This document shows positions 1-58,852 of a DNA stretch of 64,000 bases, in pieces (position 1 is the first letter of the stretch; each line of letters opens with the position of its first letter). Location of the stretch: assembly GCA_000002435.2 (NCBI GenBank), contig CM018792.1, one strand, 5' to 3'. Below the pieces are notes generated by a model. It saw nothing but the letters and a program-made list of their open reading frames with translations. It was not told the DNA's origin and searched no databases. The position numbers and the translations under genes were made by a program. This stretch comes from Giardia intestinalis (taxonomy: Eukaryota).

Positions 1-1
1 G

Positions 2-733
2 ATCAACCTCTCTGCGCTGCCTCAACTGATCCGTGCTGCACACACGAATAACATGGAGACTGTCCGGATGCTGGCTAACAAGAGGAACTACATCGGCCAG
101 CGCGACGAGCAGGGGATGACGGCCCTCATGCACGCGGCCCAGCAGGGGCACATCGGTCCTGTCGAGCTGCTTGTTAGAAAAGAGAGGGGTCTCAAAGATA
201 AGAGCGGTTGGACCGCGCTCATGCACGCTGCACACGGGAACCACCTTGAGGTAATTGAGATTCTCATCCCTTATGAACATAGGAAGAGGAGCAAGAATAA
301 CCACACTGCCTTGATGATCGCCGTAAAAAAGGGCCACATAGAAGCTGCCTCCCTTCTAGTCTCATATGAGAAGAACCTGATCGACGACGAAGGCAAAACG
401 GCCTTGGTGATTGCGGCAGAGGCAGGACATGAAGCTCTGATGGAGACCATCGACCCAACCGATGACAGGGGCGTCACGGCGCTCATGCGAGCCGTTGATA
501 GAGGTGATATGGCAACAGCAAAAGCGCTTGTGGCTCTTCAACGAGGACGAGTGGCACATGGTGAGACGGCGCTAATGCAAGCAGTCACGTACGACAATAT
601 AAATGGGATAAAATTATTACTGCCACATGAAAGCGGTATGCATGATAGATATGGTGCAACCGCCCTCATGAAAGCTGCCTATAAGGGTTACTTAGAGGCA
701 GTAAAGTTATTAATAAAAAAGAAAGTGGGATGA
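2..733 (+). CDS. Ankyrin-repeat domain of a NEK-kinase / Protein 21.1 paralogue; 5' end lies outside the window. The reading frame is open from nt 2 and stops at 731-733
   Basis: Repeated 'G(x)TALMxAAxxGH' ankyrin units. Nt 1-75 are nearly identical (1 mismatch) to nt 29987-30061 inside the NEK kinase gene at 28860-31445, and the protein is collinear with that gene's ankyrin tail (INLSALPQLIRAAHTN...). Confidence 0.7.
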   Translation: MNLSALPQLIRAAHTNNMETVRMLANKRNYIGQRDEQGMTALMHAAQQGHIGPVELLVRKERGLKDKSGWTALMHAAHGNHLEVIEILIPYEHRKRSKNNHTALMIAVKKGHIEAASLLVSYEKNLIDDEGKTALVIAAEAGHEALMETIDPTDDRGVTALMRAVDRGDMATAKALVALQRGRVAHGETALMQAVTYDNINGIKLLLPHESGMHDRYGATALMKAAYKGYLEAVKLLIKKKVG

Positions 734-1131
734 AGGACAATTATAACAGGACTGCGCTCATGGAAGCGGCGGCTAGGAATCATTTGGAAATAGTTATAAT
801 GTTAATAGAATATGAAGCATGCATGAGGGATAGCTTTGGGGAAACGGCCCTTATGAAGGCTGCTTCGAATGGTCATTTGGAGGTAGTTGAGCTGTTGATA
901 GAATACGAAGCTGGTAAAAATGATGACTCTGGAGAAACAGCCCTTATGAAAGCCGCCCTCGGGGGCTATCTGAAGGTAGTCGAGCTGCTATTTGAAAGCG
1001 AGGGGTATCTAATAGACAAATCTGACAAATCCTTCTTTGGTAAGCTTGAGGCTAAGGGCTACTTTGAGATAGTATCTTTCCTTAGGGACAGCAGTAGAAC
1101 ATCTAGCACCGATGGCTACAGTTACTCTTAG
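730..1131 (+). CDS. Ankyrin-repeat continuation of the preceding gene in a shifted frame (probable frameshift, so pseudogene or sequencing error)
   Basis: '...VKLLIKKKVG*' is followed directly by 'MKDNYNRTALMEAAARNH...', which completes the same ankyrin unit if one nt is restored near gtggga^tgaagg (~728-731). Ends DGYSYS*. Confidence 0.5.
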   Translation: MKDNYNRTALMEAAARNHLEIVIMLIEYEACMRDSFGETALMKAASNGHLEVVELLIEYEAGKNDDSGETALMKAALGGYLKVVELLFESEGYLIDKSDKSFFGKLEAKGYFEIVSFLRDSSRTSSTDGYSYS

Positions 1132-19223: not shown

Positions 19224-19293
19224 GAAATAGCAATTATTTTATTCCCTTTACTCCGCAATACCATTACCTTTCAATAAGGCGTCTAACCCGGCT

Positions 19294-19445
19294 GTGAATG
19301 AGGTGAATAATCATAGGATATCATATGAGGAAAATATTGTGGTACTTACTCTTACCGCAATTGCAAAGCGTGGGAGTGTCACAGAATATCCTGATTCCAC
19401 GTATGAGAACGGTGTCACAGCTCTCATAAGAGCTGCAAATAGGGG
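19294..19445 (+). pseudogene. Ankyrin-repeat gene stub (~50 aa) cut off at the start of a GC-rich block
   Basis: '...NGVTALIRAANRGEW' ankyrin unit. Composition switches abruptly at ~19445. Confidence 0.4.
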
Positions 19446-22430
19446 AGAGTGGAAACAGCAAGACTCCCGGCCCCCCTCCACGAAGGAGGCCAGGAGCCAG
19501 GGAGGGCTGACGCCGGAAGACAGCGGAGGCGCTTTGCATCAGCATCGCCAGGCCAACTGGGCTCTGTCAGCAGCACCAGGAACGGAGCGCCACAGGGCCA
19601 TGGTAAGGGCACGGGGTCGCGAGCATGGGAGAAGCACTCTGCCCAGCGCCTGCTTGCTTGGTAGGACCGGGCGCCAGAGGGGCATGTTGCCATCGGGGTA
19701 TCTCTGTCACTAATGCGCAGCGCATTGGAACACGTGCCTGGGGCCGCATCCCTTCGGCCGGGCAGACAGCCGCTAGGCTCGGCGTGAAGATGGAAGCCGT
19801 GATAGCGGACGCCGTCTCCCGGAGCAGCGCCCCCGCACAGAGCCGGCTATGCCGCGCTAGCTCGCTCGATAAGGGGCATGGGGGTCCCTTACGACGCCCT
19901 TCGGCATCTGCCGTGTCACAGGTACCCATGGCCACGAGCAGCACAGGGGACGCGGCTATGTGGGCAGGGTAGCGTATTCATGGAGGGGCAGCTGCTTCAC
20001 CTGTGCATGGCGGCGCCGGCCAGCACGTCTAGCTGCCCCACTGGCGACCACTCCTTCCCTGTGCTTGCCACAATGGGAGGGCACGTGCGCCCGTAGACCG
20101 GCAGATGCCGTGCTGGTCCTCTCGAGCAATATGCGCATCCTTGCGTGACATCCAGCGTGGACCAGATACCACGACCTGGGCCATCGCTACTGGCAAGGCA
20201 AGTGCTGGTTGCAGCAGGGACGCCCGCCGCCCTCCAAGATAGACCAGCGACCTGCGCACCAGCTGCTATGGGCCTAACCTGCCGGGAACCTGGATCACAG
20301 CGCACTTGTCAAGGCCGCACACTCATTTGCATACTCGCCGCTAGCGTTGGACAACTGCGAGGTGTCCGTCTCCGGCCGCGCTCGCCTTAGTGTTTGGTCC
20401 ATGGTGATACGCCTCAGCCGAGGAGGCTATCCGTACGCGGCAGTTCCCGGAGAGAAGGCAGGGGTGGCCGGCGGGCCTGGGAGATAGGATTAGCACTAGC
20501 GAGTCCAGCCATCGGCCCGGGTTGCACAAAGGACGCCTGTAGTGCCTCCCCGGCTTCTGAGCATGGAAGGGCTGTGGGGTCTGCAGATGAGACGGACGCT
20601 GCATTTTGATTTTATGTGTTTGTAGCAGCATAGTATTTATCGGGGTCTGCTCTGTCTGAAACCGAGAACATTCGCTTTCTTTCCTTATACAGGCTGGGAT
20701 CGATTGTAGAGGTGTACTGTGCAAACCGGTGGCGGTCAGCGTATCTACTATCCAAACAGATACTGCCTGCGTCCTCCTGTGGCAGACCACCACCAGGACC
20801 CAATCTACACAGCTACCCTGGGGCACCTGTCGGGCAATCATCACCTCCTGTCGAAGGATTGCTGTACGTCACACATCCTGAGTCGTCCATCGACCAGGTG
20901 GTGCCATAAGCTCTTGTCCCCTACTTGTCCACTCAATGCAGACTCTGAGCGCCGCCAGTTGCACTCACGTCTGCACTACTCATCTGGATGCCCCCCACTC
21001 TTCAAGAGCACATGCCCGCAGCCGATGCTCCGTATTACGAGAGGAGCCAGCCGGGCCACTGCGCTGTGCATAGCTCTCATGGGCGTATTGTTATGCGCGC
21101 CCAGCCTTTCCATCCATAAGTCACCACGCGGCTCTTTCCCACCGTCTCGCGTTCACACGTGTGCCGGCACCACCGAGCTTTTGTGGTCTCGAGTGGCCCT
21201 GATGCATGGAGCGCTTGCGCAAAGTCCTTCCACCACTGACCCAGGCCGACCCCTCGCAAGATCCTTAGCGGAGTTGCATCCGAGATGTGTGTCTGCGTTG
21301 CTGTCCAGGTGCATGTGCCGGCCCTGGTGCTTCTCACAAGCTTGCGAGCATCGAGCTGGCCTCTACCGAACCGTATCAGAAGTCAGCACCAGGATGTAGT
21401 CCCCTCGGTTGGGCTCTGCAGGCTCCCAGAGCTACACACCAAAAGGCCGTTTTTCTTTGGTTGTGCAGCGTGGGGAGATGCATCGAACTACCACACCCTC
21501 TCTGTGTGGCGTGTTTTACGGTGGGGGACGGGATCCCTGTGCTCACTGTCTATCTGCCCAGGGCCAGCCGCAGCCCGGGTTGACGATGACAAGCGAGCAT
21601 CACCTGGCTCCTTGTCAGCAGGTGGGAGATCCCGCCACCCTAGTGCCCACAACAAAGGGTGCCAATCACTGGCAGAAGGACAAGACACCCAGGCTCCCGT
21701 TCCTTCCACTGATGGTAGCCCACTATGAAGAGCCCTTTGCCGCCTGCACCAACAACCTCAGGCACTGTGGGTCCAAGTACTTCCATAGTGGACAGTGGTA
21801 GCACTATGATGATCTGGGATGATAGGAGTCCTAGTTCACTGGCTCAGGAGGCAGCACGCTTTGGGTGGTTCTTCCCTCTTGTCCAGATCTGGGAGGGCTG
21901 GCTGCCTTCTGAACCCCCTGGCACCTTGTTATGCGGTGGGAACTTTAGTAGTATTTAGTACACGAGATCAGAGCTATGCACACACCAGGCTAGAGAGTCT
22001 CATGGGCTTGCCTCCGTTGGTCCACGCTTCCACGGACCCGGTATCTCCTCCAGGGACCGCAAGAGAGCACAGAAGGCTGTGGCCAGGGAGCAAAAGCCCC
22101 TGGAGAGGAGATGCTAGCAGCTGTGCTACTGGAGCAGGAGGAGCATCGCTGCTCACTTAGGATTTCCTGGTTCCGCATGCACAGAGATCTCGGAGTCGGT
22201 GCCTGGCTGGGAGAGCAGGTTGTACAAGGGACGCGTTTGCTATCTAAATCTACACCTTGCCTCTGCAGAGGAAGCCAACGAATACTCCACAGCAATGTAC
22301 AAGAGTGCACCCCGACCAATCATTCCACAGGAGAGGTGCGATCTGAGCCTGGCCCTCACTGGTCCTGTTCCTACTGAAGCCAGGGGGAACTGCGCTATCA
22401 GCTGGCCTCCGGTTGGCGTGCTCCTGATTT
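19446..22430. other. ~3-kb GC-rich (~60%) block lacking any credible ORF. Identity unknown (a dead mobile element, rDNA-associated DNA or another junk insertion)
   Basis: Only short overlapping ORFs in all six frames. Bounded by the ankyrin stub on the left and the VSP promoter on the right. Atypical for this compact genome. Confidence 0.45.
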
Positions 22431-22544
22431 TATTCTTTTCCATCTAATTGATTTATCAAAAGGTAACAGTGGTTTGTCTACAACTTCTGGATTGATTACA
22501 AGCTTAATTGAAGAGAATGATAATCGAGTGTAAGCTTAAACTTA

Positions 22545-25500
22545 ATGTTAGCAGTAATTCTTTTAGCGTGCACAACGGTTCTAGCAGGAATCGTCCCGAA
22601 AACGGCCTGCAATCCAGAGATACCCGGCTGTGCGACGTGCACAACGACTGGGAGCGAGCAGACCTGCACAAGCTGTGCGACGGGCGGAGAGAAGGTCAGG
22701 CCGGACAAGAAGGGCTGCATCCCGCAGTGCCCTCCTGACGTGAGCACAGAGAGCGGTGAGTTCTGCGAGTGCAAGAGCACGCACCAGCCCTCGCCGGACG
22801 GGCAGACGTGTGTCCCGAAGACAGGGGCCTGCAATCCAGAGATACCCGGCTGTGCGACGTGCACAACGACTGGGAGCGAGCAGACCTGCACAAGCTGTGC
22901 GACGGGCGGAGAGAAGGTCAGGCCGGACAAGAAGGGCTGCATCCCGCAGTGCCCTCCTGACGTGAGCACAGAGAGCGGTGAGTTCTGCGAGTGCAAGAGC
23001 ACGCACCAGCCCTCGCCGGACGGGCAGACGTGTGTCCCGAAGACAGGGGCCTGCAATCCAGAGATACCCGGCTGTGCGACGTGCACAACGACTGGGAGCG
23101 AGCAGACCTGCACAAGCTGTGCGACGGGCGGAGAGAAGGTCAGGCCGGACAAGAAGGGCTGCATCCCGCAGTGCCCTCCTGACGTGAGCACAGAGAGCGG
23201 TGAGTTCTGCGAGTGCAAGAGCACGCACCAGCCCTCGCCGGACGGGCAGACGTGTGTCCCGAAGACAGGGGCCTGCAATCCAGAGATACCCGGCTGTGCG
23301 ACGTGCACAACGACTGGGAGCGAGCAGACCTGCACAAGCTGTGCGACGGGCGGAGAGAAGGTCAGGCCGGACAAGAAGGGCTGCATCCCGCAGTGCCCTC
23401 CTGACGTGAGCACAGAGAGCGGTGAGTTCTGCGAGTGCAAGAGCACGCACCAGCCCTCGCCGGACGGGCAGACGTGTGTCCCGAAGACAGGGGCCTGCAA
23501 TCCAGAGATACCCGGCTGTGCGACGTGCACAACGACTGGGAGCGAGCAGACCTGCACAAGCTGTGCGACGGGCGGAGAGAAGGTCAGGCCGGACAAGAAG
23601 GGCTGCATCCCGCAGTGCCCTCCTGACGTGAGCACAGAGAGCGGTGAGTTCTGCGAGTGCAAGAGCACGCACCAGCCCTCGCCGGACGGGCAGACGTGTG
23701 TCCCGAAGACAGGGGCCTGCAATCCAGAGATACCCGGCTGTGCGACGTGCACAACGACTGGGAGCGAGCAGACCTGCACAAGCTGTGCGACGGGCGGAGA
23801 GAAGGTCAGGCCGGACAAGAAGGGCTGCATCCCGCAGTGCCCTCCTGACGTGAGCACAGAGAGCGGTGAGTTCTGCGAGTGCAAGAGCACGCACCAGCCC
23901 TCGCCGGACGGGCAGACGTGTGTCCCGAAGACAGGGGCCTGCAATCCAGAGATACCCGGCTGTGCGACGTGCACAACGACTGGGAGCGAGCAGACCTGCA
24001 CAAGCTGTGCGACGGGCGGAGAGAAGGTCAGGCCGGACAAGAAGGGCTGCATCCCGCAGTGCCCTCCTGACGTGAGCACAGAGAGCGGTGAGTTCTGCGA
24101 GTGCAAGAGCACGCACCAGCCCTCGCCGGACGGGCAGACGTGTGTCCCGAAGACAGGGGCCTGCAATCCAGAGATACCCGGCTGTGCGACGTGCACAACG
24201 ACTGGGAGCGAGCAGACCTGCACAAGCTGTGCGACGGGCGGAGAGAAGGTCAGGCCGGACAAGAAGGGCTGCATCCCGCAGTGCCCTCCTGACGTGAGCA
24301 CAGAGAGCGGTGAGTTCTGCGAGTGCAAGAGCACGCACCAGCCCTCGCCGGACGGGCAGACGTGTGTCCCGAAGACAGGGGCCTGCAATCCAGAGATACC
24401 CGGCTGTGCGACGTGCACAACGACTGGGAGCGAGCAGACCTGCACAAGCTGTGCGACGGGCGGAGAGAAGGTCAGGCCGGACAAGAAGGGCTGCATCCCG
24501 CAGTGCCCTCCTGACGTGAGCACAGAGAGCGGTGAGTTCTGCGAGTGCAAGAGCACGCACCAGCCCTCGCCGGACGGGCAGACGTGTGTCCCGAAGACAG
24601 GGGCCTGCAATCCAGAGATACCCGGCTGTGCGACGTGCACAACGACTGGGAGCGAGCAGACCTGCACAAGCTGTGCGACGGGCGGAGAGAAGGTCAGGCC
24701 GGACAAGAAGGGCTGCATCCCGCAGTGCCCTCCTGACGTGAGCACAGAGAGCGGTGAGTTCTGCGAGTGCAAGAGCACGCACCAGCCCTCGCCGGACGGG
24801 CAGACGTGTGTCCCGAAGACAGGGGCCTGCAATCCAGAGATACCCGGCTGTGCGACGTGCACAACGACTGGGAGCGAGCAGACCTGCACAAGCTGTGCGA
24901 CGGGCGGAGAGAAGGTCAGGCCGGACAAGAAGGGCTGCATCCCGCAGTGCCCTCCTGACGTGAGCACAGAGAGCGGTGAGTTCTGCGAGTGCAAGAGCAC
25001 GCACCAGCCCTCGCCGGACGGGCAGACGTGTGTCCCGAAGACAGGGGCCTGCAATCCAGAGATACCCGGCTGTGCGACGTGCACAACGACTGGGAGCGAG
25101 CAGACCTGCACAAGCTGTGCGACGGGCGGAGAGAAGGTCAGGCCGGACAAGAAGGGCTGCATCCCGCAGTGCCCTCCTGACGTGAGCACAGAGAGCGGTG
25201 AGTTCTGCGAGTGCAAGAGCACGCACCAGCCCTCGCCGGACGGGCAGACGTGTGTCCCGAAGACAGGGGCCTGCAATCCAGAGATACCCGGCTGTGCGAC
25301 GTGCACAACGACTGGGAGCGAGCAGACCTGCACAAGCTGTGCGACGGGCGGAGAGAAGGTCAGGCCGGACAAGAAGGGCTGCATCCCGCAGTGCCCTCCT
25401 GACGTGAGCACAGAGAGCGGTGAGTTCTGCGAGTGCAAGAGCACGCACCAGCCCTCGCCGGACGGGCAGACGTGTGTCCCGAAGACAGGGGCCTGCAATC

Positions 25501-28496
25501 CAGAGATACCCGGCTGTGCGACGTGCACAACGACTGGGAGCGAGCAGACCTGCACAAGCTGTGCGACGGGCGGAGAGAAGGTCAGGCCGGACAAGAAGGG
25601 CTGCATCCCGCAGTGCCCTCCTGACGTGAGCACAGAGAGCGGTGAGTTCTGCGAGTGCAAGAGCACGCACCAGCCCTCGCCGGACGGGCAGACGTGTGTC
25701 CCGAAGACAGGGGCCTGCAATCCAGAGATACCCGGCTGTGCGACGTGCACAACGACTGGGAGCGAGCAGACCTGCACAAGCTGTGCGACGGGCGGAGAGA
25801 AGGTCAGGCCGGACAAGAAGGGCTGCATCCCGCAGTGCCCTCCTGACGTGAGCACAGAGAGCGGTGAGTTCTGCGAGTGCAAGAGCACGCACCAGCCCTC
25901 GCCGGACGGGCAGACGTGTGTCCCGAAGACAGGGGCCTGCAATCCAGAGATACCCGGCTGTGCGACGTGCACAACGACTGGGAGCGAGCAGACCTGCACA
26001 AGCTGTGCGACGGGCGGAGAGAAGGTCAGGCCGGACAAGAAGGGCTGCATCCCGCAGTGCCCTCCTGACGTGAGCACAGAGAGCGGTGAGTTCTGCGAGT
26101 GCAAGAGCACGCACCAGCCCTCGCCGGACGGGCAGACGTGTGTCCCGAAGACAGGGGCCTGCAATCCAGAGATACCCGGCTGTGCGACGTGCACAACGAC
26201 TGGGAGCGAGCAGACCTGCACAAGCTGTGCGACGGGCGGAGAGAAGGTCAGGCCGGACAAGAAGGGCTGCATCCCGCAGTGCCCTCCTGACGTGAGCACA
26301 GAGAGCGGTGAGTTCTGCGAGTGCAAGAGCACGCACCAGCCCTCGCCGGACGGGCAGACGTGTGTCCCGAAGACAGGGGCCTGCAATCCAGAGATACCCG
26401 GCTGTGCGACGTGCACAACGACTGGGAGCGAGCAGACCTGCACAAGCTGTGCGACGGGCGGAGAGAAGGTCAGGCCGGACAAGAAGGGCTGCATCCCGCA
26501 GTGCCCTCCTGACGTGAGCACAGAGAGCGGTGAGTTCTGCGAGTGCAAGAGCACGCACCAGCCCTCGCCGGACGGGCAGACGTGTGTCCCGAAGACAGGG
26601 GCCTGCAATCCAGAGATACCCGGCTGTGCGACGTGCACAACGACTGGGAGCGAGCAGACCTGCACAAGCTGTGCGACGGGCGGAGAGAAGGTCAGGCCGG
26701 ACAAGAAGGGCTGCATCCCGCAGTGCCCTCCTGACGTGAGCACAGAGAGCGGTGAGTTCTGCGAGTGCAAGAGCACGCACCAGCCCTCGCCGGACGGGCA
26801 GACGTGTGTCCCGAAGACAGGGGCCTGCAATCCAGAGATACCCGGCTGTGCGACGTGCACAACGACTGGGAGCGAGCAGACCTGCACAAGCTGTGCGACG
26901 GGCGGAGAGAAGGTCAGGCCGGACAAGAAGGGCTGCATCCCGCAGTGCCCTCCTGACGTGAGCACAGAGAGCGGTGAGTTCTGCGAGTGCAAGAGCACGC
27001 ACCAGCCCTCGCCGGACGGGCAGACGTGTGTCCCGAAGACAGGGGCCTGCAATCCAGAGATACCCGGCTGTGCGACGTGCACAACGACTGGGAGCGAGCA
27101 GACCTGCACAAGCTGTGCGACGGGCGGAGAGAAGGTCAGGCCGGACAAGAAGGGCTGCATCCCGCAGTGCCCTCCTGACGTGAGCACAGAGAGCGGTGAG
27201 TTCTGCGAGTGCAAGAGCACGCACCAGCCCTCGCCGGACGGGCAGACGTGTGTCCCGAAGACAGGGGCCTGCAATCCAGAGATACCCGGCTGTGCGACGT
27301 GCACAACGACTGGGAGCGAGCAGACCTGCACAAGCTGTGCGACGGGCGGAGAGAAGGTCAGGCCGGACAAGAAGGGCTGCATCCCGCAGTGCCCTCCTGA
27401 CGTGAGCACAGAGAGCGGTGAGTTCTGCGAGTGCAAGAGCACGCACCAGCCCTCGCCGGACGGGCAGACGTGTGTCCCGAAGACAGGGGCCTGCAATCCA
27501 GAGATACCCGGCTGTGCGACGTGCACAACGACTGGGAGCGAGCAGACCTGCACAAGCTGTGCGACGGGCGGAGAGAAGGTCAGGCCGGACAAGAAGGGCT
27601 GCATCCCGCAGTGCCCTCCTGACGTGAGCACAGAGAGCGGTGAGTTCTGCGAGTGCAAGAGCACGCACCAGCCCTCGCCGGACGGGCAGACGTGTGTCCC
27701 GAAGACAGGGGCCTGCAATCCAGAGATACCCGGCTGTGCGACGTGCACAACGACTGGGAGCGAGCAGACCTGCACAAGCTGTGCGACGGGCGGAGAGAAG
27801 GTCAGGCCGGACAAGAAGGGCTGCATCCCGCAGTGCCCTCCTGACGTGAGCACAGAGAGCGGTGAGTTCTGCGAGTGCAAGAGCACGCACCAGCCCTCGC
27901 CGGACGGGCAGACGTGTGTCCCGAAGACAGGGGCCTGCAATCCAGAGATACCCGGCTGTGCGACGTGCACAACGACTGGGAGCGAGCAGACCTGCACAAG
28001 CTGTGCGACGGGCGGAGAGAAGGTCAGGCCGGACAAGAAGGGCTGCATCCCGCAGTGCCCTCCTGACGTGAGCACAGAGAGCGGTGAGTTCTGCGAGTGC
28101 AAGAGCACGCACCAGCCCTCGCCGGACGGGCAGACGTGTGTCCCGAAGACAGGGGCCTGCAATCCAGAGATACCCGGCTGTGCGACGTGCACAACGACTG
28201 GGAGCGAGCAGACCTGCACAAGCTGTGCGACGGGCGGAGAGAAGGTCAGGCCGGACAAGAAGGGCTGCATCCCGCAGTGCCCTCCTGACGTGAGCACAGA
28301 GAGCGGTGAGTTCTGCGAGTGCAAGAGCACGCACCAGCCCTCGCCGGACGGGCAGACGTGTGTCCCTTCTAACACAAACAAGAGTAGCGGCCTTTCTACC
28401 GGCGCTATTGCAGGCATTGCTGTGGCCGCTGTCATTGTCGTTGGGGGCCTCGTGGGATTCTTGTGTTGGTGGTTCCTCTGCCGGGGCAAGGCGTAG
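22545..28496 (+). CDS. Variant-specific surface protein (VSP) of 1,983 aa: signal peptide, 26 identical 74-aa cysteine-rich repeats, TM helix and CRGKA tail
   Basis: Start context ttaATGtt (PyAatgTT). Signal peptide 'MLAVILLACTTVLAG'. Repeat unit 'TGACNPEIPGCATCTTTGSEQTCTSCATGGEKVRPDKKGCIPQCPPDVSTESGEFCECKSTHQPSPDGQTCVPK'. C-terminus '...[26 protein letters not shown]'. Poly(A) signal ACTTAGGTAGTGAAT at 28509-28523. Confidence 0.9.
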   Translation: MLAVILLACTTVLAGIVPKTACNPEIPGCATCTTTGSEQTCTSCATGGEKVRPDKKGCIPQCPPDVSTESGEFCECKSTHQPSPDGQTCVPKTGACNPEIPGCATCTTTGSEQTCTSCATGGEKVRPDKKGCIPQCPPDVSTESGEFCECKSTHQPSPDGQTCVPKTGACNPEIPGCATCTTTGSEQTCTSCATGGEKVRPDKKGCIPQCPPDVSTESGEFCECKSTHQPSPDGQTCVPKTGACNPEIPGCATCTTTGSEQTCTSCATGGEKVRPDKKGCIPQCPPDVSTESGEFCECKSTHQPSPDGQTCVPKTGACNPEIPGCATCTTTGSEQTCTSCATGGEKVRPDKKGCIPQCPPDVSTESGEFCECKSTHQPSPDGQTCVPKTGACNPEIPGCATCTTTGSEQTCTSCATGGEKVRPDKKGCIPQCPPDVSTESGEFCECKSTHQPSPDGQTCVPKTGACNPEIPGCATCTTTGSEQTCTSCATGGEKVRPDKKGCIPQCPPDVSTESGEFCECKSTHQPSPDGQTCVPKTGACNPEIPGCATCTTTGSEQTCTSCATGGEKVRPDKKGCIPQCPPDVSTESGEFCECKSTHQPSPDGQTCVPKTGACNPEIPGCATCTTTGSEQTCTSCATGGEKVRPDKKGCIPQCPPDVSTESGEFCECKSTHQPSPDGQTCVPKTGACNPEIPGCATCTTTGSEQTCTSCATGGEKVRPDKKGCIPQCPPDVSTESGEFCECKSTHQPSPDGQTCVPKTGACNPEIPGCATCTTTGSEQTCTSCATGGEKVRPDKKGCIPQCPPDVSTESGEFCECKSTHQPSPDGQTCVPKTGACNPEIPGCATCTTTGSEQTCTSCATGGEKVRPDKKGCIPQCPPDVSTESGEFCECKSTHQPSPDGQTCVPKTGACNPEIPGCATCTTTGSEQTCTSCATGGEKVRPDKKGCIPQCPPDVSTESGEFCECKSTHQPSPDGQTCVPKTGACNPEIPGCATCTTTGSEQTCTSCATGGEKVRPDKKGCIPQCPPDVSTESGEFCECKSTHQPSPDGQTCVPKTGACNPEIPGCATCTTTGSEQTCTSCATGGEKVRPDKKGCIPQCPPDVSTESGEFCECKSTHQPSPDGQTCVPKTGACNPEIPGCATCTTTGSEQTCTSCATGGEKVRPDKKGCIPQCPPDVSTESGEFCECKSTHQPSPDGQTCVPKTGACNPEIPGCATCTTTGSEQTCTSCATGGEKVRPDKKGCIPQCPPDVSTESGEFCECKSTHQPSPDGQTCVPKTGACNPEIPGCATCTTTGSEQTCTSCATGGEKVRPDKKGCIPQCPPDVSTESGEFCECKSTHQPSPDGQTCVPKTGACNPEIPGCATCTTTGSEQTCTSCATGGEKVRPDKKGCIPQCPPDVSTESGEFCECKSTHQPSPDGQTCVPKTGACNPEIPGCATCTTTGSEQTCTSCATGGEKVRPDKKGCIPQCPPDVSTESGEFCECKSTHQPSPDGQTCVPKTGACNPEIPGCATCTTTGSEQTCTSCATGGEKVRPDKKGCIPQCPPDVSTESGEFCECKSTHQPSPDGQTCVPKTGACNPEIPGCATCTTTGSEQTCTSCATGGEKVRPDKKGCIPQCPPDVSTESGEFCECKSTHQPSPDGQTCVPKTGACNPEIPGCATCTTTGSEQTCTSCATGGEKVRPDKKGCIPQCPPDVSTESGEFCECKSTHQPSPDGQTCVPKTGACNPEIPGCATCTTTGSEQTCTSCATGGEKVRPDKKGCIPQCPPDVSTESGEFCECKSTHQPSPDGQTCVPKTGACNPEIPGCATCTTTGSEQTCTSCATGGEKVRPDKKGCIPQCPPDVSTESGEFCECKSTHQPSPDGQTCVPKTGACNPEIPGCATCTTTGSEQTCTSCATGGEKVRPDKKGCIPQCPPDVSTESGEFCECKSTHQPSPDGQTCVPSNTNKSSGLSTGAIAGIAVAAVIVVGGLVGFLCWWFLCRGKA
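22605..28368 (+). repeat. Perfect head-to-tail array of 26 x 222 bp (coding tandem repeat inside the VSP)
   Basis: Unit starts (gcctgcaatccagag...) recur exactly every 222 nt (22605, 22827, ...). All shadow ORFs are identical, implying ~100% identity between units. Confidence 0.9.
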
Positions 28497-28552: not shown

Positions 28553-28771
28553 GTGGGTGATTGCAAGCACTGTGTGGTGGATGATGTGTGTGGGGAGTGC
28601 AGTGATGGATACAGTCTAGACAGCAGTGGGGCCTCCTGTGTGTCTTCTAGCAGTAATAGGAGCGGGCTCTCCACGGGGGCCATAGCTGGCATCTCCGTCG
28701 CTGTCATCGCTGTCGTGGGGGGCCTCGTGGGCTTCCTCTGCTGGTGGTTCCTCTGTAGAGGGAAGGCGTGA
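28553..28771 (+). pseudogene. Orphan VSP 3' fragment of 72 codons. No ATG (the track start is GTG) and no signal peptide
   Basis: '...[57 protein letters not shown]' plus the poly(A) signal at 28771-28785. Paralogous to 2200-2394. Confidence 0.7.
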
Positions 28772-28859
28772 CTTAGGTAGTAAATGCGTCGACGAATCCA
28801 GTGTGGCCCAATCACTCGTTCAGCCCAATACTTGACCCTGTTTTTGAAATAAAGCTATC

Positions 28860-31445
28860 ATGACCGACGGTGATGACCACACAGTCAGCCCCTCAGCGGC
28901 GGCCCTCGCCATCCCACAGTTCACCTTTGAGGACCTTCGCGAGCGGCTGGGCAGTGTGTTAAGAAGAGACGCCGCAGCTGTAGTCTACTCCCTCGAGGGC
29001 TATCCAAACCTCGCTGTGCAGGAGATCCTCCTCGATGGCCTGGACAAGGGGGATCTGGACGCCATCAAGACAAGATTGACCGTCATCCTTACCCTCTCCC
29101 ACCCGGGGGTCCTCAAGCACCACCAAGTAGTCGAGGACGAGGGCCTCATCTACGTCGTCACGGACCGGCACGACAGGACCCTCGAGCGCCTCCTCACCGA
29201 GCACAAACGAAGGAAGATCCCCGTGTCTGCCGGCGTGATCCTCTCCGTCATGAAACAGCTCGCCGCCGCCCTCGCCTATCTTCATGGTCTCAGCGGGGTA
29301 GGTGCTAATGGGCTTGTCCACTGCGACCTCAGGCCTGCCAACGTCCTCATCAGCGCAGACGGGGAGCGCTTCGTCATCGCCGACTTCGGCCTCTGCAGAA
29401 ACACATTGTGGAGTGAGAGCACCATTGCAGGCATGGCAGTATACATGGCCCCCGAGATGCTCCTCCACAACGAGCCCAGCCCCGCCTCCGATGTGTGGAG
29501 CCTCGGGGTCATCCTCTACGAGATGGCCACTCTGAGGAGACCGGACTTCCTGAAAGGTAAAGACCCAAAAGACGTCTTCGTCGACAGGTGGAGGCCGGAC
29601 CTGAGCAGTGTCACCGATGGCTTCATAAAGAGTGTTCTGGAGAGGATATTCGTGCTGGAGCCAGAGGAAAGACTGACAGCCAGGGAGCTGCACGAGACGC
29701 TCACTGCGGCTGACATCCCAGTTGGTGAGCTGGGGGCTCAGTACGCGATGCTGAAGTACGAATGCGGATCCCTGAAGGCCGCTCTGAACAGTGCTAACGC
29801 TAGGATTGCTACTCTTGAGGCAGCCCTCGACGCCAGGTCTACTGAGATGGTGTCTCAGTCAACCGAGACTGCCTCTCTCAAGGACGCACTTGAAGATCAG
29901 TGCAAGGAGCATCTGGCCATGATTAAGGCACTAGAGAATAGATTCACAGAATTTAGTGGTGGGATGAACACGAGTAGCTCCCAGATCAACCTCTCTGCGC
30001 TGCCTCAACTGATCCGTGCTGCACACACGAATGACATGGAGACTGTCCGGATGCTGGTCAGCGAAGGGATTGGCATCGGCCAGCGCGACGAGCAGGGGAT
30101 GACGGCCCTTATGCACGCGGCCCAGCAAGGGCACGTTGGCCCTGTCAGGCTGCTTGTTGAGAGGGGGAATGGCCTCCAGGATAGGAACGGCTGGACTGCG
30201 CTCATGCACGCCGCACACAACGGCCACCCTGGGGCGGCTAGGATCCTCGCTCCTTACGAGTACTGGAGGAGAGACAACAACGGCCGCACCGCCCTGATGA
30301 TGGCCACACAGCAAGGGAGCCTTGAAGTGGTAAAGCTCCTTCTTGATCATGAGAAGGGGCTGAAAGATAAGCAACATCACAACGCCCTATACCATGCTCT
30401 CGAGAATGGCCACTTAGGGGTTGCCGAGATGATCATTCCCTACGAGGACCCCACAGATGAGAAGGGCGTCACGGCACTCATGAGAGCCGCAGCCAGAGGG
30501 GACACTGGGATGGTAAGGCTGCTTATACCAGTTCAGAAAGGAATAAAGGATAGCAATGGGGACACAGCGTTCATGCACGCCCTCAAGAATCAGCACGCAG
30601 ACATAGCTCTGCTTCTTCGCGAGCATGAGGCCCCCTCGTGGACCCCGCTCATGTGCGCGGCCTTCACTGGAGACGTTACCATGGTGAGGAGGCACTTCCA
30701 TGAGAGAGACGTGAAGAACAGCGACGGCGAGACTGCGCTGGTGATTGCTGCAAGGAAAGGATACAGGGAAATCGTCGAGCTCCTCGATCCCACAGATGAG
30801 AATGGCGTCACAGCGCTCATGCGAGCTGTTGACAGAAACGATCTGATGGCTGTGAAGGCCCTCCTTCCTCTCCAGGGGGGACAGAAAGCGACGGGGGATG
30901 TCAGGATAGGCAAGCTGATTATATACGGTGGAACGGCGCTGATGATAGCAGCAGCACGTGGTCACACAAGGATAGTGGAACTGCTCGTGGAGAAGGAGGG
31001 CGGGATGCAGACAAGTTATGGTTCGACAGCCCTCATAAGGGCAGCGGAGAATGGTCACACAGACTGTGTTAGACTACTAGTAAAGAAGGAGGGCGGGGTA
31101 CAGAATAAGTATGGATGGACAGCTCTCATGAGTGCAGCACAGAATGGCTATACAAGGATAGTGGAAGTACTCCTGGAAAAGGAAGGGGGTATGCAAAGGA
31201 GTGACGGCCAGACAGCCCTCATGAGTGCAACACAGTATGGTCATACAGACTGCACTAGAATATTGCTAGAGAAGGAGGGTGGGATGCAGAACAATGGTGG
31301 TTCGACAGCCCTCATGTTCGCAGTAAGGTATGGCCACCTAGAGTGTGTTAAGCTACTCCTAGAGAAGGAGAAGAACATAGACAGGAGGAAGCTCTTGAAC
31401 ACAGCCGAGGGAAATGAAGAGATACTAGCGATCCTCTCGAAGTAG
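28860..31445 (+). CDS. NEK-family Ser/Thr protein kinase with a coiled coil and a C-terminal ankyrin-repeat domain
   Basis: Kinase motifs 'HCDLRPANVL', 'IADFGLCR', 'YMAPE', 'DVWSLGVILYEM'. Coiled coil at ~aa 290-370. At least 12 ankyrin units follow. A/T-rich initiator upstream. Confidence 0.85.
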   Translation: MTDGDDHTVSPSAAALAIPQFTFEDLRERLGSVLRRDAAAVVYSLEGYPNLAVQEILLDGLDKGDLDAIKTRLTVILTLSHPGVLKHHQVVEDEGLIYVVTDRHDRTLERLLTEHKRRKIPVSAGVILSVMKQLAAALAYLHGLSGVGANGLVHCDLRPANVLISADGERFVIADFGLCRNTLWSESTIAGMAVYMAPEMLLHNEPSPASDVWSLGVILYEMATLRRPDFLKGKDPKDVFVDRWRPDLSSVTDGFIKSVLERIFVLEPEERLTARELHETLTAADIPVGELGAQYAMLKYECGSLKAALNSANARIATLEAALDARSTEMVSQSTETASLKDALEDQCKEHLAMIKALENRFTEFSGGMNTSSSQINLSALPQLIRAAHTNDMETVRMLVSEGIGIGQRDEQGMTALMHAAQQGHVGPVRLLVERGNGLQDRNGWTALMHAAHNGHPGAARILAPYEYWRRDNNGRTALMMATQQGSLEVVKLLLDHEKGLKDKQHHNALYHALENGHLGVAEMIIPYEDPTDEKGVTALMRAAARGDTGMVRLLIPVQKGIKDSNGDTAFMHALKNQHADIALLLREHEAPSWTPLMCAAFTGDVTMVRRHFHERDVKNSDGETALVIAARKGYREIVELLDPTDENGVTALMRAVDRNDLMAVKALLPLQGGQKATGDVRIGKLIIYGGTALMIAAARGHTRIVELLVEKEGGMQTSYGSTALIRAAENGHTDCVRLLVKKEGGVQNKYGWTALMSAAQNGYTRIVEVLLEKEGGMQRSDGQTALMSATQYGHTDCTRILLEKEGGMQNNGGSTALMFAVRYGHLECVKLLLEKEKNIDRRKLLNTAEGNEEILAILSK

Positions 31446-31479
31446 CCAGAGTAAACAGCGATCGTCTCTACATCAGACT

Positions 31480-31751
31480 TTACATCTCACAGCCCCACCA
31501 CGCAGCAGGACTCCGGGGCCAGCAGCCTCTAGCGCGAGAGCGAACGCGGCTCAGGGAAGTCGGCAAGCCGGCTCCGTAACCTCGGGAAAAGGAGTGGCTC
31601 TGACGGCGCGCCGGGTCAGAACTGGAACGGACGCGGGGATCCCGACTGTTTACTAGAAACACAGCGTCGCGAGGGCCGCACCCGGCGCTGGCGCGACGTG
31701 ATTTCTGCCCAGTGCCACGACCGTCACTGTGAAGCGATCCGCCGAAGCCCT

Positions 31752-31803
<52 letters not shown>

Positions 31804-32010
31804 GGGCAATTTCCGACGTGCATGAATGGACCAACGAGGATCCCACTGTCCCGAGCCGCGCCTCCGCGAGCCTCCAGCCTCGGGAACGGGCGAGGGCCGG
31901 CCAGCGGGGCAAGAAGACCCTTTTGAGCTTGACTCCAGCCCGGGCCTGTGGGACGCACCTGCAGAGCGCAGGGCGGGGCGCGCCGAGAAACTGCTTTGCT
32001 GGTGTGTGTG
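31480..32010 (+). rRNA. 5'-truncated fragment of large-subunit (LSU) rRNA, domains IV-V (rDNA relic). GC-rich rRNA-like sequence may continue, in diverged form, to ~32500
   Basis: Universally conserved LSU strings in order: 'GGGAAGTCGGCAAGCCGGCTCCGTAACCTCGGGAAAAGGAG', 'CTGTTTACTAGAAACACAGC', 'CTGCCCAGTGCC', 'GGTAAACGGCGGGAGTAACTATGACTCTCTTAAGGTAGCCAAATGCCTCGTCGGGCAATTTCCGACGTGCATGAATGG', 'GGCAAGAAGACCCTTTTGAGCTTGACTC'. The upstream LSU domains and the SSU are missing, because the kinase gene ends at 31445. Confidence 0.7.
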
Positions 32011-32962
32011 GCAGACAGACAGGGAGCGCGGAAAGAGAAGAGTGAGGTCGTGCAGGAAGGTCCGAGGGGCCGCCGGAGGACACGTGCACGCCCACGGCCG
32101 GGTCTTCCTCGTGCAGAGGGACGCCCGTGTGTGCCGCACAGCACCGCTGGGAGGCCGTCGGGGGAGACCGCTGCGGAGAGGGCAGCAGAGCAGCCAGGAG
32201 GCCCCAGAGGCGGTGCAGGGTGGCTGTGTCACCCTGCCAGAGGGTGGAGGCAGGGGGCACACGGGGGAGGGGCGCAGAGAGGGCGCGGAGGGGCGCGTGG
32301 ACGGAGCCCTGCAGGGGACACGGGGGCAGCCACCGAGGATCCCTCGAGCACTCCGGTCTCTCCTGTGGCCTCCTGCTCCCCCGTGCCCCCGCTGTAGCCA
32401 GGCGCGCACCCCGCACCCGGGACAGCCACCTGAAAGAGCTGTGTACACCGGGACAGAGAGGGTGACCAAGGAGAGTCAAGCAGTCCTGTCATGAGGGTGC
32501 ACCGGTAGGCCCTTGTCCAGCACACATCATACGATATTCGGAGGTCATGAAGTGCGTATTCGGTGCGTCTATCAGACGTCAATACGGCTGGATTAGCCGT
32601 CCTATTGCCAGGTTGTGCCGCCTCGAGTTAGCAGAGAGCTATGCTCCACCCTCTGCAGGCTGCTCTCTCAGTCGCGGCTCAGCCCTTGTCCCGGAATTCC
32701 GATACCATTCAGGCTCTGCCTCGTCCGCCCGCTGCACTGTAGAGTAGGAGCGCAGGCCTCGGTCCACACTTCAGTGTTACCCATTCCCATAGTGCAATCC
32801 GTCACATTAGAAGATCAAGGATGTTTTAGCTTAGTCTTTGCAACCATCTATGAAGAGTGCTTCGCAAAGGAAAGAACATGACAAAACTTTATTGGGACTT
32901 TGTCCAGCACTCTTCTAAGCCTAGAATCCGCATTGCCAACGACTAGGGAAGTATCGAATGTT

Positions 32963-33919
32963 CTAGGAAACCGCTTGGAAGCACAGCCCACGATATGTTG
33001 CCCTGCAAGAGCCTTTCCCTTTAACTCGGCGCATTCAGCCATGCACTCCCACCTCTATAGAATTCCGAGACGTCTGCTTTTCCTACAAGACGGGCTGCGA
33101 TATTCTACATGGCTTGACCCTGTTTGTTCATCCCGGTCAGAAGGTTGCTATCGTGGGAGGTCTGGGATCGGCAAGTCCACGATCATCAACCTCTTGACGC
33201 GGCTATACACCACACCCCAGCCTCAGGACACTTCGTCGCCCGGAATCTATCTCAATGGCAGGGCTATAGGGTCCATTCCACGCGAGGAGCTGCGGCGGCT
33301 TATAACAGTCGTCCCGCAGGATAACATACTCATCAGGGGCTCTGCCACGGACAACATCGCCTATGGACAGCCCCGCAAGCTCCTGGGCTCCCACGCAGAA
33401 AAGGAGCAGAGGCGCTACATCCGAGAAGTCATTCGGCTATGCTACGAGGCTTCCCGTGTTGCTACTGCTGAAGAGCTCCTGGGAGACGCACCGTACAGTG
33501 GAACCCTGCAGGGCCTTTCTGGGGGACAACGCCAACGGGTAGGAATTGCCAGAGCTGTCGCACGTGGAGGCAGCGTTCTTGTGCTCGACGAGGCGACGTC
33601 GGCACTCGACGAAGAGACAGAGAAGCGGGTCCTCCAACAGCTATTCCGCTCACTGGACCCCAACCAGAGCGTCGTCATTATCAGTCACAGACTCTCCACT
33701 CTCCGGTATGTCGACCTGATTTATGTCCTAGATAATCCAGATGGCAGTGGAGCGCGCGTGGTAGAGTCAGGCTCGTACGACTGGTTCGTTGCCGAAAGCC
33801 AATATCTGAAGGATGCAGGCCAGGATATCTCTGACCTTGTGAGTAACTGTGGCTGTAGCAGCGCAGGTGTTACCCCAGGCTTCTCCCATGCAACTCTTGA
33901 TGCAAAGGGGGATCCGTAG
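32963..33919 (+). pseudogene. ABC-transporter nucleotide-binding domain relic (ABCB-type). It has no transmembrane domain and carries a 1-nt frameshift in the Walker A motif
   Basis: Frame A reads 'SIEFRDVCFSYKTGCDILHGLTLFVHPGQKVAIVGG', then shifts at ggaggt^ctggg (~33150) to 'SGIGKSTIINLL'. The signature motif 'LSGGQRQRVGIARAV', Walker B 'VLVLDEATSALD' and H-loop 'IISHRLST' are intact. Confidence 0.65.
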
Positions 33920-56434: not shown

Positions 56435-58852
56435 ATGCTCAAGCTGCTCTTGTTATTTTTCGTCGGTTCTTTCTGTGGACTTCCAACAGGTACATACTGC
56501 AATGGTTTCGGCATAGAATGTGGGCAGGGGCATGAGCATTGCTTTTCGGGTAGGTGTCTCTTAATAGGTTCGACAAAAGTGTGCACTCGATGCGTGTCCG
56601 GCTATGTTCCGATAAATGGGGTATGCCAGCCGTATCCAGGAAGTGCTTCCTCTGTGTGTATTCCGGAAGAAGCTGAATCCTCAATTCGTTGCATCAAATG
56701 CAAACCAAACGAGAACGTGTTCCTATTTTACGGTGGCTGCTACACGGTGGATCGGTCTGCCGTTGGTGGCCAAATCTGTTCTCGTGCGTCAAATGGCAGG
56801 TGCGTCGAATGCAATGTGAGTACTCATGGGGCCTATGTCTTTACTAATCCAAACGAGACTGCAGAAGAAAGGTGCATTGCGTGCTCTGACTCAATTGGAT
56901 TTAGCGGATACGGAGGCGTTCTTGAATGCTATAGTTGCACACAGCCGGTTACTGGCGGAAAAACTACGGCATTGTGCACTAAGTGTCGTTCTCCTGAACA
57001 AAATCCAATTGACCACGAATGTCGAGCTAAGGGTCTCCATACCTGTTTTTCTGGTCTATGCGTATCGTGCTACAAAACGCACTTACTTTATCACTCTGGA
57101 TGCTACAGCCGGGGCAGTGACACAGGGTTAGCGATATGCGCAGCGAAAAACCAGTATGTGCTGGATAATGTCACTATCTGTAAGGAGTGTGTGAATACGC
57201 TCTACGCACCAAAAAGTGGAGTGTGTGTTCCTGTCGATGGAGATATTCCTGTTATGGGATTTTCTGATTGTACAAAAGATAATGATAAGGGTCTGTGCAT
57301 AAACTGTGCTAATTCTGCGGAGTATTTCCTTTTTTATGGCGGCTGTTATTACAAGAAGTCTGGAATCGGTTCGAGACTCTGCTCAGCGGTGGTCTCAGGC
57401 GTCTGCACAGAGTGGAAAACTCAGTTTGATTTCATCTTTAATAAGAATGACAATGATGGCGGCTATCTGTGCGGCGACGCTACAAATGGGGGCGTTTCTG
57501 ACTGTGCCACGTGCAGCTACGAAAGCGGTGCTGTCACTTGTACGAGCTGCTCAAAAGGGTATCTCGGAGTGGACGGGAAGTCCTGCAGTAAAAGTTGTAG
57601 TGGAGACACTCGGGGAGTGTGCACGAAGGTAACAGAAGGGAGCGAGTCAATTGAAACATCGTGTCGATGCGTCTGCATGCCGACGTTCTACAGCAGCTCT
57701 GGGACCTGCACACCATGTACGGACTCGTGCGCTGTCTGCAAGGATGGCACGCCAGATGGCTGTCAGATATGCAAACCGGGCAAAGTCCTGGAGCCGTCAG
57801 TCGTCACGAACGGTAATGCAAAGTGCGTAGATGAGTGCACTGTTGGTGACAATTGTGCAGAATGCGGCATCACCATCGACGGCAGCAGGTACTGCACGCG
57901 CTGCAAGGACTCGAATATGTACCCTCTCAACGGGGTGTGTATTCCGAACACACAAAAAGACGCGTACTGTACCAGCAAGGCGAACGGTGCTTGCACTGCC
58001 TGCTCTGAAGCGGCCTTCCTGATGAACGGGGGCTGCTACACAACAGAGTACTATCCAGGAAGCACTATCTGTGATAAGCAGTCAAACGGAAAGTGCACAA
58101 CGACCAAGAAGGGGTACTGGATATCGCCCGATGGAAAGCTGCTGGAGTGCGATCCGACATGTCTGGCGTGCACCGCCCCTGGCCCCGGCCGCTGCACCAG
58201 GTGCCCCTCTGACAAGCTCCTGAAGAGGGCCTCGGGTGCCGCCACCGGGAGTTGCGTCGACCCCGGCGCCTGTGTGGACGGGTACTACGCAGACGGAGAC
58301 GCGTGCCTGCCCTGCGCCACTCCGGGGTGCAAGACCTGCGGGCATGCCTCCTTCTGCACAGAGTGCGCGGGGGAGCTCTTCGTGAGCCTGGACGGGCAGT
58401 CGTGCTTGGAGGAGTGCACCGGGGACAAGGTGGTGGGAGAGGTGCCCGGCGGCGTGCGGAGGTGCTGGTGCGAGCGGGGTTTCCTGCCGGCGCCGGACAA
58501 GTCTGGATGTGTGCCCGCACCCGAGTGTCCCCCTGACATGTCGTGGTGTGCATCATGTGATATGTCGGGTAGGTGTCTCTCGTGTGTCACCTCGGGCCAC
58601 AACGTCCAAGTAGACCAGCGGACGTGTGCAGAAGGGTGCGGCGCCAGGGCCTCATCGAACCAGGGGGTGTGCATGTGCGAGACCAGTACGATTCTTGACA
58701 AAGGTGTCTGCATTCCTGTCAATACTCTTACCGGAAGGAAGATGGTAGTAGTTACGGCCAGTGCAGCATCAGCTGTGCTCGTAATCAGTGCCCTGATTGG
58801 CTTCCTTTGCTGGTGGTTCATCTGCAGAGGAAAGCGTCGATACTACCGTTAG
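56435..58852 (+). CDS. High-cysteine membrane protein (HCMP), 805 aa
   Basis: Signal peptide 'MLKLLLLFFVGSFCG', dozens of CXXC/CXC motifs, and a C-terminal TM helix plus '...LIGFLCWWFICRGKRRYYR*' (HCMP-type tail rather than the VSP CRGKA). Confidence 0.85.
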   Translation: MLKLLLLFFVGSFCGLPTGTYCNGFGIECGQGHEHCFSGRCLLIGSTKVCTRCVSGYVPINGVCQPYPGSASSVCIPEEAESSIRCIKCKPNENVFLFYGGCYTVDRSAVGGQICSRASNGRCVECNVSTHGAYVFTNPNETAEERCIACSDSIGFSGYGGVLECYSCTQPVTGGKTTALCTKCRSPEQNPIDHECRAKGLHTCFSGLCVSCYKTHLLYHSGCYSRGSDTGLAICAAKNQYVLDNVTICKECVNTLYAPKSGVCVPVDGDIPVMGFSDCTKDNDKGLCINCANSAEYFLFYGGCYYKKSGIGSRLCSAVVSGVCTEWKTQFDFIFNKNDNDGGYLCGDATNGGVSDCATCSYESGAVTCTSCSKGYLGVDGKSCSKSCSGDTRGVCTKVTEGSESIETSCRCVCMPTFYSSSGTCTPCTDSCAVCKDGTPDGCQICKPGKVLEPSVVTNGNAKCVDECTVGDNCAECGITIDGSRYCTRCKDSNMYPLNGVCIPNTQKDAYCTSKANGACTACSEAAFLMNGGCYTTEYYPGSTICDKQSNGKCTTTKKGYWISPDGKLLECDPTCLACTAPGPGRCTRCPSDKLLKRASGAATGSCVDPGACVDGYYADGDACLPCATPGCKTCGHASFCTECAGELFVSLDGQSCLEECTGDKVVGEVPGGVRRCWCERGFLPAPDKSGCVPAPECPPDMSWCASCDMSGRCLSCVTSGHNVQVDQRTCAEGCGARASSNQGVCMCETSTILDKGVCIPVNTLTGRKMVVVTASAASAVLVISALIGFLCWWFICRGKRRYYR

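Follow-up and report, generated by a model that had tools for sequence, protein, structure and literature searches.

The two Nek-ankyrin genes and their surroundings

The stretch of DNA analysed here (64,000 nt of Giardia intestinalis contig CM018792.1, assembly GCA_000002435.2; hereafter the window) is from isolate WB clone C6, on a 2.76-Mb contig/chromosome of the current assembly, and several of its proteins match KAE83037xx / XP_0017096xx entries exactly. It holds two genes in the same orientation, 29 kb apart (Table 1). Gene B (GL50803_9870 / XP_001709670.1 / KAE8303743.1, 'Kinase, NEK') encodes a dead kinase domain in which VAIK has become LAVQ (Pfam Pkinase, residues 58-278, 5.6e-31), then a coiled-coil-like linker, then a long ankyrin array. 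Gene A (GL50803_32958) is interrupted by the window start, and its frame there is identical to the last 243 aa of XP_001709650.1 (322 aa), which belongs to the 2007 annotation only. Both genes are listed in Additional file 1 of Manning et al. 2011: gene B as GK095, Other/Nek/Nek-GL4, 'Dead Nek, VAIK->LAVQ', and gene A as GK127, Nek-GL4, 'Dead Nek, K72Q', merged from multiple GiardiaDB ORFs (PMC3218828). The sequences given there agree with the window and with XP_001709650.1, and the last 71 listed residues of the GK127 model overlap exactly with the latter.

The kinase domain of gene A lies upstream of the window. It is present in the GK127 model and in the intact syntenic orthologue of isolate DH (Pfam), which bears out the view of the earlier note that the window opens in a second NEK-ankyrin gene. 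Pfam Ank_2/Ank matches mark the ankyrin arrays in window 2-730, 730-1128 and gene B, and TALM motifs are visible in the translations of both arrays; TALM-type ankyrin repeats have been described for Giardia Neks (PMC3218828). The check on catalytic residues (K72, D166, D184) was negative, with LAVQ in place of VAIK in genes A and B. As 71% of Giardia Neks are inactive (PMC3218828), inactivity is typical of these proteins and LAVQ is no bar to Nek-GL4 membership. Genes A and B are members of Nek-GL4 and pseudokinases. A literature search by locus ID returned no paper naming the two loci.

Table 1. Features of genes A and B in the window (positions in nt). WB-A, WB-B, DH-A and DH-B denote the two genes in isolates WB and DH.
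Feature	Position	Strand	Evidence or remark
Gene A reading frame within the window	2..733	+	Premature TGA at 731-733
3' end of the tract shared by A and B, in gene A; first half ankyrin repeat, ...INLSALPQLIRAAHTNNMETVRML	1..74	+	73/74 to 29984-30057
Single A/B difference in the in-window tract	50..50	+	A (gene A) vs G at 30033 (gene B); Asn vs Asp
3' breakpoint interval of the tract	66..75	+	Last A=B site nt 66; first WB-A=DH-A site nt 75
Gene A segment following the DH orthologue while B diverges	75..163	+	92-95% nt identity to DH-A
Anomalous gene A segment	164..451	+	63-83% to DH-A vs syntenic baseline of ~99%
Native 3' part of gene A (ankyrin repeats, C-terminal tail)	452..1131	+	~50% to gene B
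A6 homopolymer, 1-nt deletion vs A7 in DH	715..720	+	Alignment; DH reads LLIKKESGMKDNYN
+1-frame continuation of gene A	730..1131	+	Four more ankyrin repeats, family-typical tail ...DKSDKSFFGKLEAKGYFEIVSFLRDS; open frame
Gene B	28860..31445	+	861 aa
Locus-specific N-terminus of gene B	28860..28981	+	5' of all A/B-shared sequence
Stretch over which DH-A = DH-B	28982..29372	+	391/391 identical to each other; DH-B vs WB-B 93.6%
Shared tract in gene B	29109..30057	+	Residues 84-399, identical to WB gene A save one residue; ~948 nt

The region around the two genes is rich in repeats. The end of gene A overlaps by 20 nt with an ORF at 1112-1930 for 'Ankyrin repeat protein 2' (ankyrin + C3HC4 RING; Ank-RING). 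WB has six or more members of this family that are at least 90% identical, spread over three or more chromosome-scale contigs. Several of the DH copies lie on the same contig as a GL4-type Nek gene, which hints at a Nek + Ank-RING module that recurs. Positions 22593-28366, within ORF 22545-28496 (KAE8303742.1 'VSP', 1983 aa), consist of ~26 head-to-tail units of 222 nt (74 aa) at 99.9% identity; the array also gives rise to long ORFs without stops on the opposite strand, and it is collapsed to one unit in the DH assembly. Dispersed copies of the VSP 3' end (transmembrane/tail), 75-88% identical, occur at 2207-2393, 28379-28494 and 28597-28783. The first lies between the Ank-RING and WD40 genes; of the others, one forms the genuine 3' end of the VSP gene and one survives as a remnant shortly upstream of gene B. 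In DH the first site carries an ORF for a VSP fragment, and one of the two copies upstream of gene B is missing. The short-read contigs of many samples break at the first copy (~2357).

GC-rich stretches (58-60%) at 19224-22544 and 31446-32900 flank the VSP/gene B block and carry overlapping ORFs on both strands, with no Pfam match; DH is collinear through 19224-22816. A contig of another isolate (L016, SRR10662890), 99.5% identical, encodes a 944-aa ABC transporter, of which positions 32900-33919 encode only the C-terminal ABC-ATPase part. Collinearity with that contig stops sharply at ~33001-33005, and the remainder of the contig maps nowhere in the window. WB thus has a rearrangement or insertion breakpoint beside the variable, high-GC VSP/gene B block. 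A second GC-rich stretch spans 58-62 kb; at its margin, an ORF at 56435-58852 encodes an 805-aa cysteine-rich, VSP/HCMP-like protein that matches a Pfam VSP domain. Repeats (~2357, 19440, 33885) end the short-read (Logan) contigs that cover the surroundings of the WD40 and 1135-aa genes, short of A and B, and in a third lineage an 18.6-kb contig stops within the Ank-RING gene. We also considered whether Nek, Ank-RING and VSP remnant had been duplicated together as one collinear segment, and rejected this: gene B has no Ank-RING homologue after it, and its VSP remnant lies on its upstream side, where that of gene A lies downstream.

Extent of the sequence shared by genes A and B

The near-identical tract that the earlier note placed at the window start is present, but 3 nt out of register. 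Aligned ungapped, 1-75 and 29987-30061 are 27% identical; the correct register pairs 1-74 with 29984-30057. No further copy of 1-74 with three or fewer mismatches was found within the window, and 100 dinucleotide shuffles gave 0 matches to the tract, so the chance expectation is 0. At the one position where A and B differ here, the A is private to WB gene A, with G in both DH-A and WB-B. The 24 in-window tract codons contain 0 synonymous A/B differences.

The ungapped alignment of the two genes extends over 322 nt and contains 68 mismatches. If these were evenly spread, one or none would fall in the first 74 nt with P = 4.5e-8. Divergence is thus uneven, and the uniform divergence that the earlier note had set against its own reading was not found. 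Just past nt 74 there are 10 mismatches in a 16-nt block, followed by 36/36 identical positions (91-126), which fall in a conserved IGQRDEQGMTALMHAAQQGH motif. Identity is ~73% over 75-322, 78.9% over 1-322 (BLAST) and ~50% in DNA beyond 322. The fall to roughly 80% described earlier is therefore an approximation only. The proteins, said to remain collinear, are not strictly so: the ankyrin array is longer in B, and the alignment has several large gaps.

To follow the tract upstream of the window, the gene A protein was assembled by joining the GK127 model, XP_001709650.1 and the window translation. It equals gene B over B residues 84-391 (308 aa) and, after the lone Asn/Asp change, over 393-399. 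The 79 extra residues of XP_001709650.1 upstream of the window are all identical to gene B. At the protein level the tract reaches at least 874 nt upstream of the window, which holds its last 74 nt only; what had been taken for a short tract of ~75 nt is the 3' end of one of ~0.95 kb. Most of the dead kinase domain falls within the tract, as do the coiled-coil-like linker and the first half ankyrin repeat. For WB gene A, ~92% of it is known as protein only (2007 RefSeq model, 2011 supplementary table), and of its edges the 3' one is located in DNA and the 5' one (B residue 83/84) in protein. Gene A appears as several ORFs in the 2007 annotation, so the tract must contain one or more A/B differences that break the frame.

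Outside the tract the two genes are far less alike. Gene A departs from B upstream of B residue 84: residues 68-83 form a distinct patch, and over 1-46 the two are unrelated. A patch of gene A upstream of the tract, the DTIRLELATLLDLSHPR segment, is unlike B, and the A-specific junction carries …METVRMLANKRNY…. Downstream of B residue 399, A and B diverge to the ~50% DNA identity given above. The high-identity segment is flanked on both sides by far more diverged homologous sequence.

Comparison with isolate DH

DH is an assemblage A2 isolate, in which the syntenic locus lies on AHGT01000047.1 (L018). There DH-A, intact with kinase, linker and ankyrin parts, follows a 223-aa ankyrin gene and precedes Ank-RING, a VSP fragment and WD40, in that order, and flanking synteny between WB and DH is 98-99% identical. 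In window 1-74, WB-A has 5 differences from DH-A and 1 from WB-B. After the two intermediate segments of Table 1, WB-A and DH-A are 98-100% identical over 452-1131.

We classified the sites at which the three genes differ as P (WB-A = WB-B, unlike DH-A) or Q (WB-A = DH-A, unlike WB-B). In DNA, the P:Q ratio is 4:0 in nt 1-74 and 16:44 in nt 75-322 (Fisher p = 0.008 vs nt 1-74). Within the latter, nt 75-163 have P = 2 and Q = 11, and nt 75 starts 10 consecutive sites that place WB-A with DH-A. In the native 3' part (nt 452-1131) the ratio is 5:309. The protein comparison extends this to both sides of the tract. B residues 84-399 give a P:Q:R of 43:0:1. The P:Q ratio is 2:21 for B residues 1-46 and 3:21 for the pooled 5' flank (residues 1-83; tract vs 5' flank, Fisher p = 2e-14), and 5:20 for the 3' flank (residues 400-480; tract vs 3' flank, Fisher p = 6e-13). 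The tract groups by genome and both flanks group by locus, and the two signals are incongruent.

Purifying selection on the most constrained part of the protein might keep such a tract alike. Many GL4 paralogues do conserve the first ankyrin motif (AAHTNDMETVRML / IGQRDEQGMTALMHAAQQGH) as well as the kinase core, and the 36/36 match at nt 91-126 may be a case of this kind. Across the tract's 949 nt, however, 86 sites separate DH-A from WB-B; 43 codons differ with a change of amino acid and 26 by synonymous changes only. As the DH orthologue has diverged to this extent, constraint cannot explain the identity of A and B in WB. Other paralogues are 58-85% identical to the tract. Constraint would also be hard to reconcile with the lack of synonymous differences in the in-window codons and with the loss of identity within 10 nt at the edge, and we regard it as extremely improbable.

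A second pair of paralogues is available in DH, where the DH-A contig runs on through the VSP (its tandem array collapsed there) into DH-B (L024). Only the first 513 nt of DH-B are present, at a contig end inside a repeat, where consensus quality may be lower. DH-A and DH-B are identical over the stretch given in Table 1. Upstream of it, in B codons 1-41, identity to DH-B is 96.7% for WB-B and 50% for DH-A. In each isolate, then, paralogues A and B share one version of the kinase region, and these versions differ by 6-9% between WB and DH, with a patchy identity profile (80-100% across 60-nt windows). The difference exceeds the 1-2% baseline, which means that extra input from third paralogues is needed; homology searches found no close donor for it.

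The pattern in both isolates is the signature of repeated interlocus gene conversion, that is, of concerted evolution. The gene-conversion footprint proposed in the earlier note is upheld: inside the tract WB-A groups with WB-B, in both flanks it groups with DH-A, and the DH pair is identical at 391/391 positions. Window positions 1-74 are very likely the 3' end of a ~0.95-kb tract that was copied non-reciprocally between two Nek-GL4 pseudokinase-ankyrin genes.

A single recent partial duplication or unequal crossover, in which the ankyrin array of one Nek became attached to the 5' half of a different one, might also yield a chimera, with no conversion involved. The surroundings are variable and repeat-rich, with VSP remnants, the multi-copy Ank-RING gene and the breakpoint at 33001, and Manning et al. 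read five GL4 pairs of >98% identity as very recent duplicates (PMC3218828). The tract is internal, however: gene A retains its own N-terminus (Q = 21 and P = 2 over B residues 1-46) as well as its own 3' part, with DH-A as the syntenic orthologue of both. One crossover does not suffice for this, and the two exchange points that are needed amount to conversion. Nor would a single ancestral duplication foresee that the DH pair is independently identical, with a different sequence. Finally, synteny puts both loci in the common ancestor of A1 and A2. We consider such a duplication improbable.

Under gene conversion, we infer, rather than observe, the recombination mechanism, direction and timing of the last WB event. 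A break in one copy would have been repaired by homologous recombination with the other copy as template, and the copied patch would stop where the similarity between A and B collapses, at gene A nt 66-75. By recurrence of such events the kinase/linker module evolves in concert within a lineage, whereas in the N-terminus and the ankyrin array each locus follows its own course.

Gene A as a mosaic and the turnover of the GL4 family

The exchange with gene B does not account for all of gene A. In the anomalous segment (164-451), the best protein match of WB-A is the GL4-type paralogue P0002 (72%). WB-A and DH-A are here each nearest a different GL4-type paralogue (P0002, P0006), at 72-75% protein identity. 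Upstream of the tract, the WB-A patch at B residues 47-83 best matches P0127-type proteins (88%). As these patches best match other paralogues, further GL4 genes contribute to gene A, and both patches may derive from such paralogues. The earlier note had envisaged a single footprint in diverged paralogues; the footprint stands, as one layer of a mosaic built by several events. In gene A, GC3 lies at 0.67-0.90 in the exchanged segments on the 5' side, against 0.41-0.49 in the stable 3' part. This contrast is suggestive only, of a different origin or of GC-biased conversion, and we rejected it as proof of either. For the ankyrin array of gene B, the best orthologue candidates were 48-61% identical, in a homology search that also missed B's own entry (P0167) and DH-A.

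In WB the frame of gene A is disrupted. The premature TGA is explained by the shortening of A7, as found in DH, to A6. The 402 nt that continue in the +1 frame have 96% protein identity to the C-terminus of DH-A, and the tail motif ...DKSDKSFFGKLEAKGYFEIVSFLRDS is common to P0002, P0004 and P0006. As this frame is open and 96% identical, the disruption is either very recent or not fixed in all four genome copies. The truncated end ...LLIKKKVG is also that of the 2007 protein. Two independent WB assemblies thus agree, so a one-assembly error does not account for the frameshift. In the current annotation, the accessions of gene A's neighbours, the 223-aa ankyrin gene upstream (KAE8303729.1) and Ank-RING at 1112 (KAE8303730.1), are consecutive, which suggests that gene A was left out. 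WB gene A is probably a young, decaying pseudogene that is still in exchange.

The agreement between WB assemblies bears on a possible artefact in which one paralogue was assembled or polished with reads of the other, be it in WB, at the DH contig end or in both. Several observations would fit such an artefact. Short-read contigs of many samples break near these repeats, and the intact 861-aa product is in no short-read assembly; DH-B sits at a contig end inside the repeat, and the upstream part of WB gene A was compared as protein. Yet the junction (B-type to nt 74, then A-type) and the frameshift occur both in the 2007 Sanger-based proteins and in the 2020 long-read assembly. A copy that is 9% diverged would not collapse or be mis-polished over ~1 kb, and the DH-B stretch is tied to its own unique 5' end within roughly one read length. 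This makes an assembly or polishing artefact very unlikely, and gene conversion remains the preferred explanation.

The GL4 group was already known to turn over fast, with strain-specific clusters, 29 GL4 pseudogenes in WB and five pairs at >98% identity (PMC3218828). Our results are like this account in that both genes are listed there as 'dead' members of Nek-GL4, and a frameshifted gene A fits the picture (PMC3218828). The explanation given was duplication, loss and pseudogenisation, and the terms 'gene conversion' and 'recombination' are absent from the main text (PMC3218828). Unlike a new duplication, the present case combines an internal identical segment, diverged flanks and independent recurrence in DH, and this points to conversion between existing loci. 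Segmental gene conversion and recombination are summarised for Giardia VSP genes in Xu et al. 2020, where NEK/ankyrin families are suggested as 'anchoring-points for recombination' (PMC7641422). Exchange between A and B resembles that among VSPs in that dispersed members of a large variable family in 'flexible' chromosome regions are involved, and a VSP and VSP 3' remnants flank both loci. It differs in that VSPs are surface antigens whose exchange has been tied to antigenic variation, whereas here an intracellular pseudokinase and its linker are exchanged and the ankyrin array is left out.

The classical case of concerted evolution by interlocus gene conversion is the primate gamma-globin pair HBG1/HBG2. 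As in that pair, the paralogues are closer within a lineage than the orthologues are between lineages, the tract ends are sharply bounded at the loss of homology, and the copies are linked in direct orientation at tens of kb or less. Unlike HBG1/HBG2, genes A and B belong to a protist that is tetraploid, binucleate and mostly asexual; a pseudogene is probably one of the partners, and more than two family members supply patches. Loci A and B add a well-supported example of a familiar process to a family whose dynamism had been recognised before.

Because the 0.95-kb repeat is shared by A and B, short-read assemblies break here, and SNP or expression calls for the two genes that are based on read mapping call for caution. 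Nek/ankyrin genes make up ~70% of the Giardia kinome and much of the difference in gene content between isolates, and their turnover has so far been read as duplication, loss and pseudogenisation. If kinase modules are homogenised between loci, orthology calls and presence/absence counts between assemblages would in part be artefacts of mosaicism, kinase-domain trees would not follow the history of the loci, and pseudogenes could serve as sequence reservoirs. A wider reading, which we put forward tentatively and consider rather unlikely, is that the GL4 dead-kinase + coiled-coil module is a shared cassette, homogenised among many dispersed loci, pseudogenes included, while the ankyrin arrays remain as locus-specific 'addresses'. 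Such exchange would be family-wide, possibly GC-biased or selected, and analogous on intracellular scaffolds to that between VSPs and pseudo-VSPs. Many 'strain-specific' GL4 Neks and 'recent duplicates' would then be products of conversion, not gains or losses.
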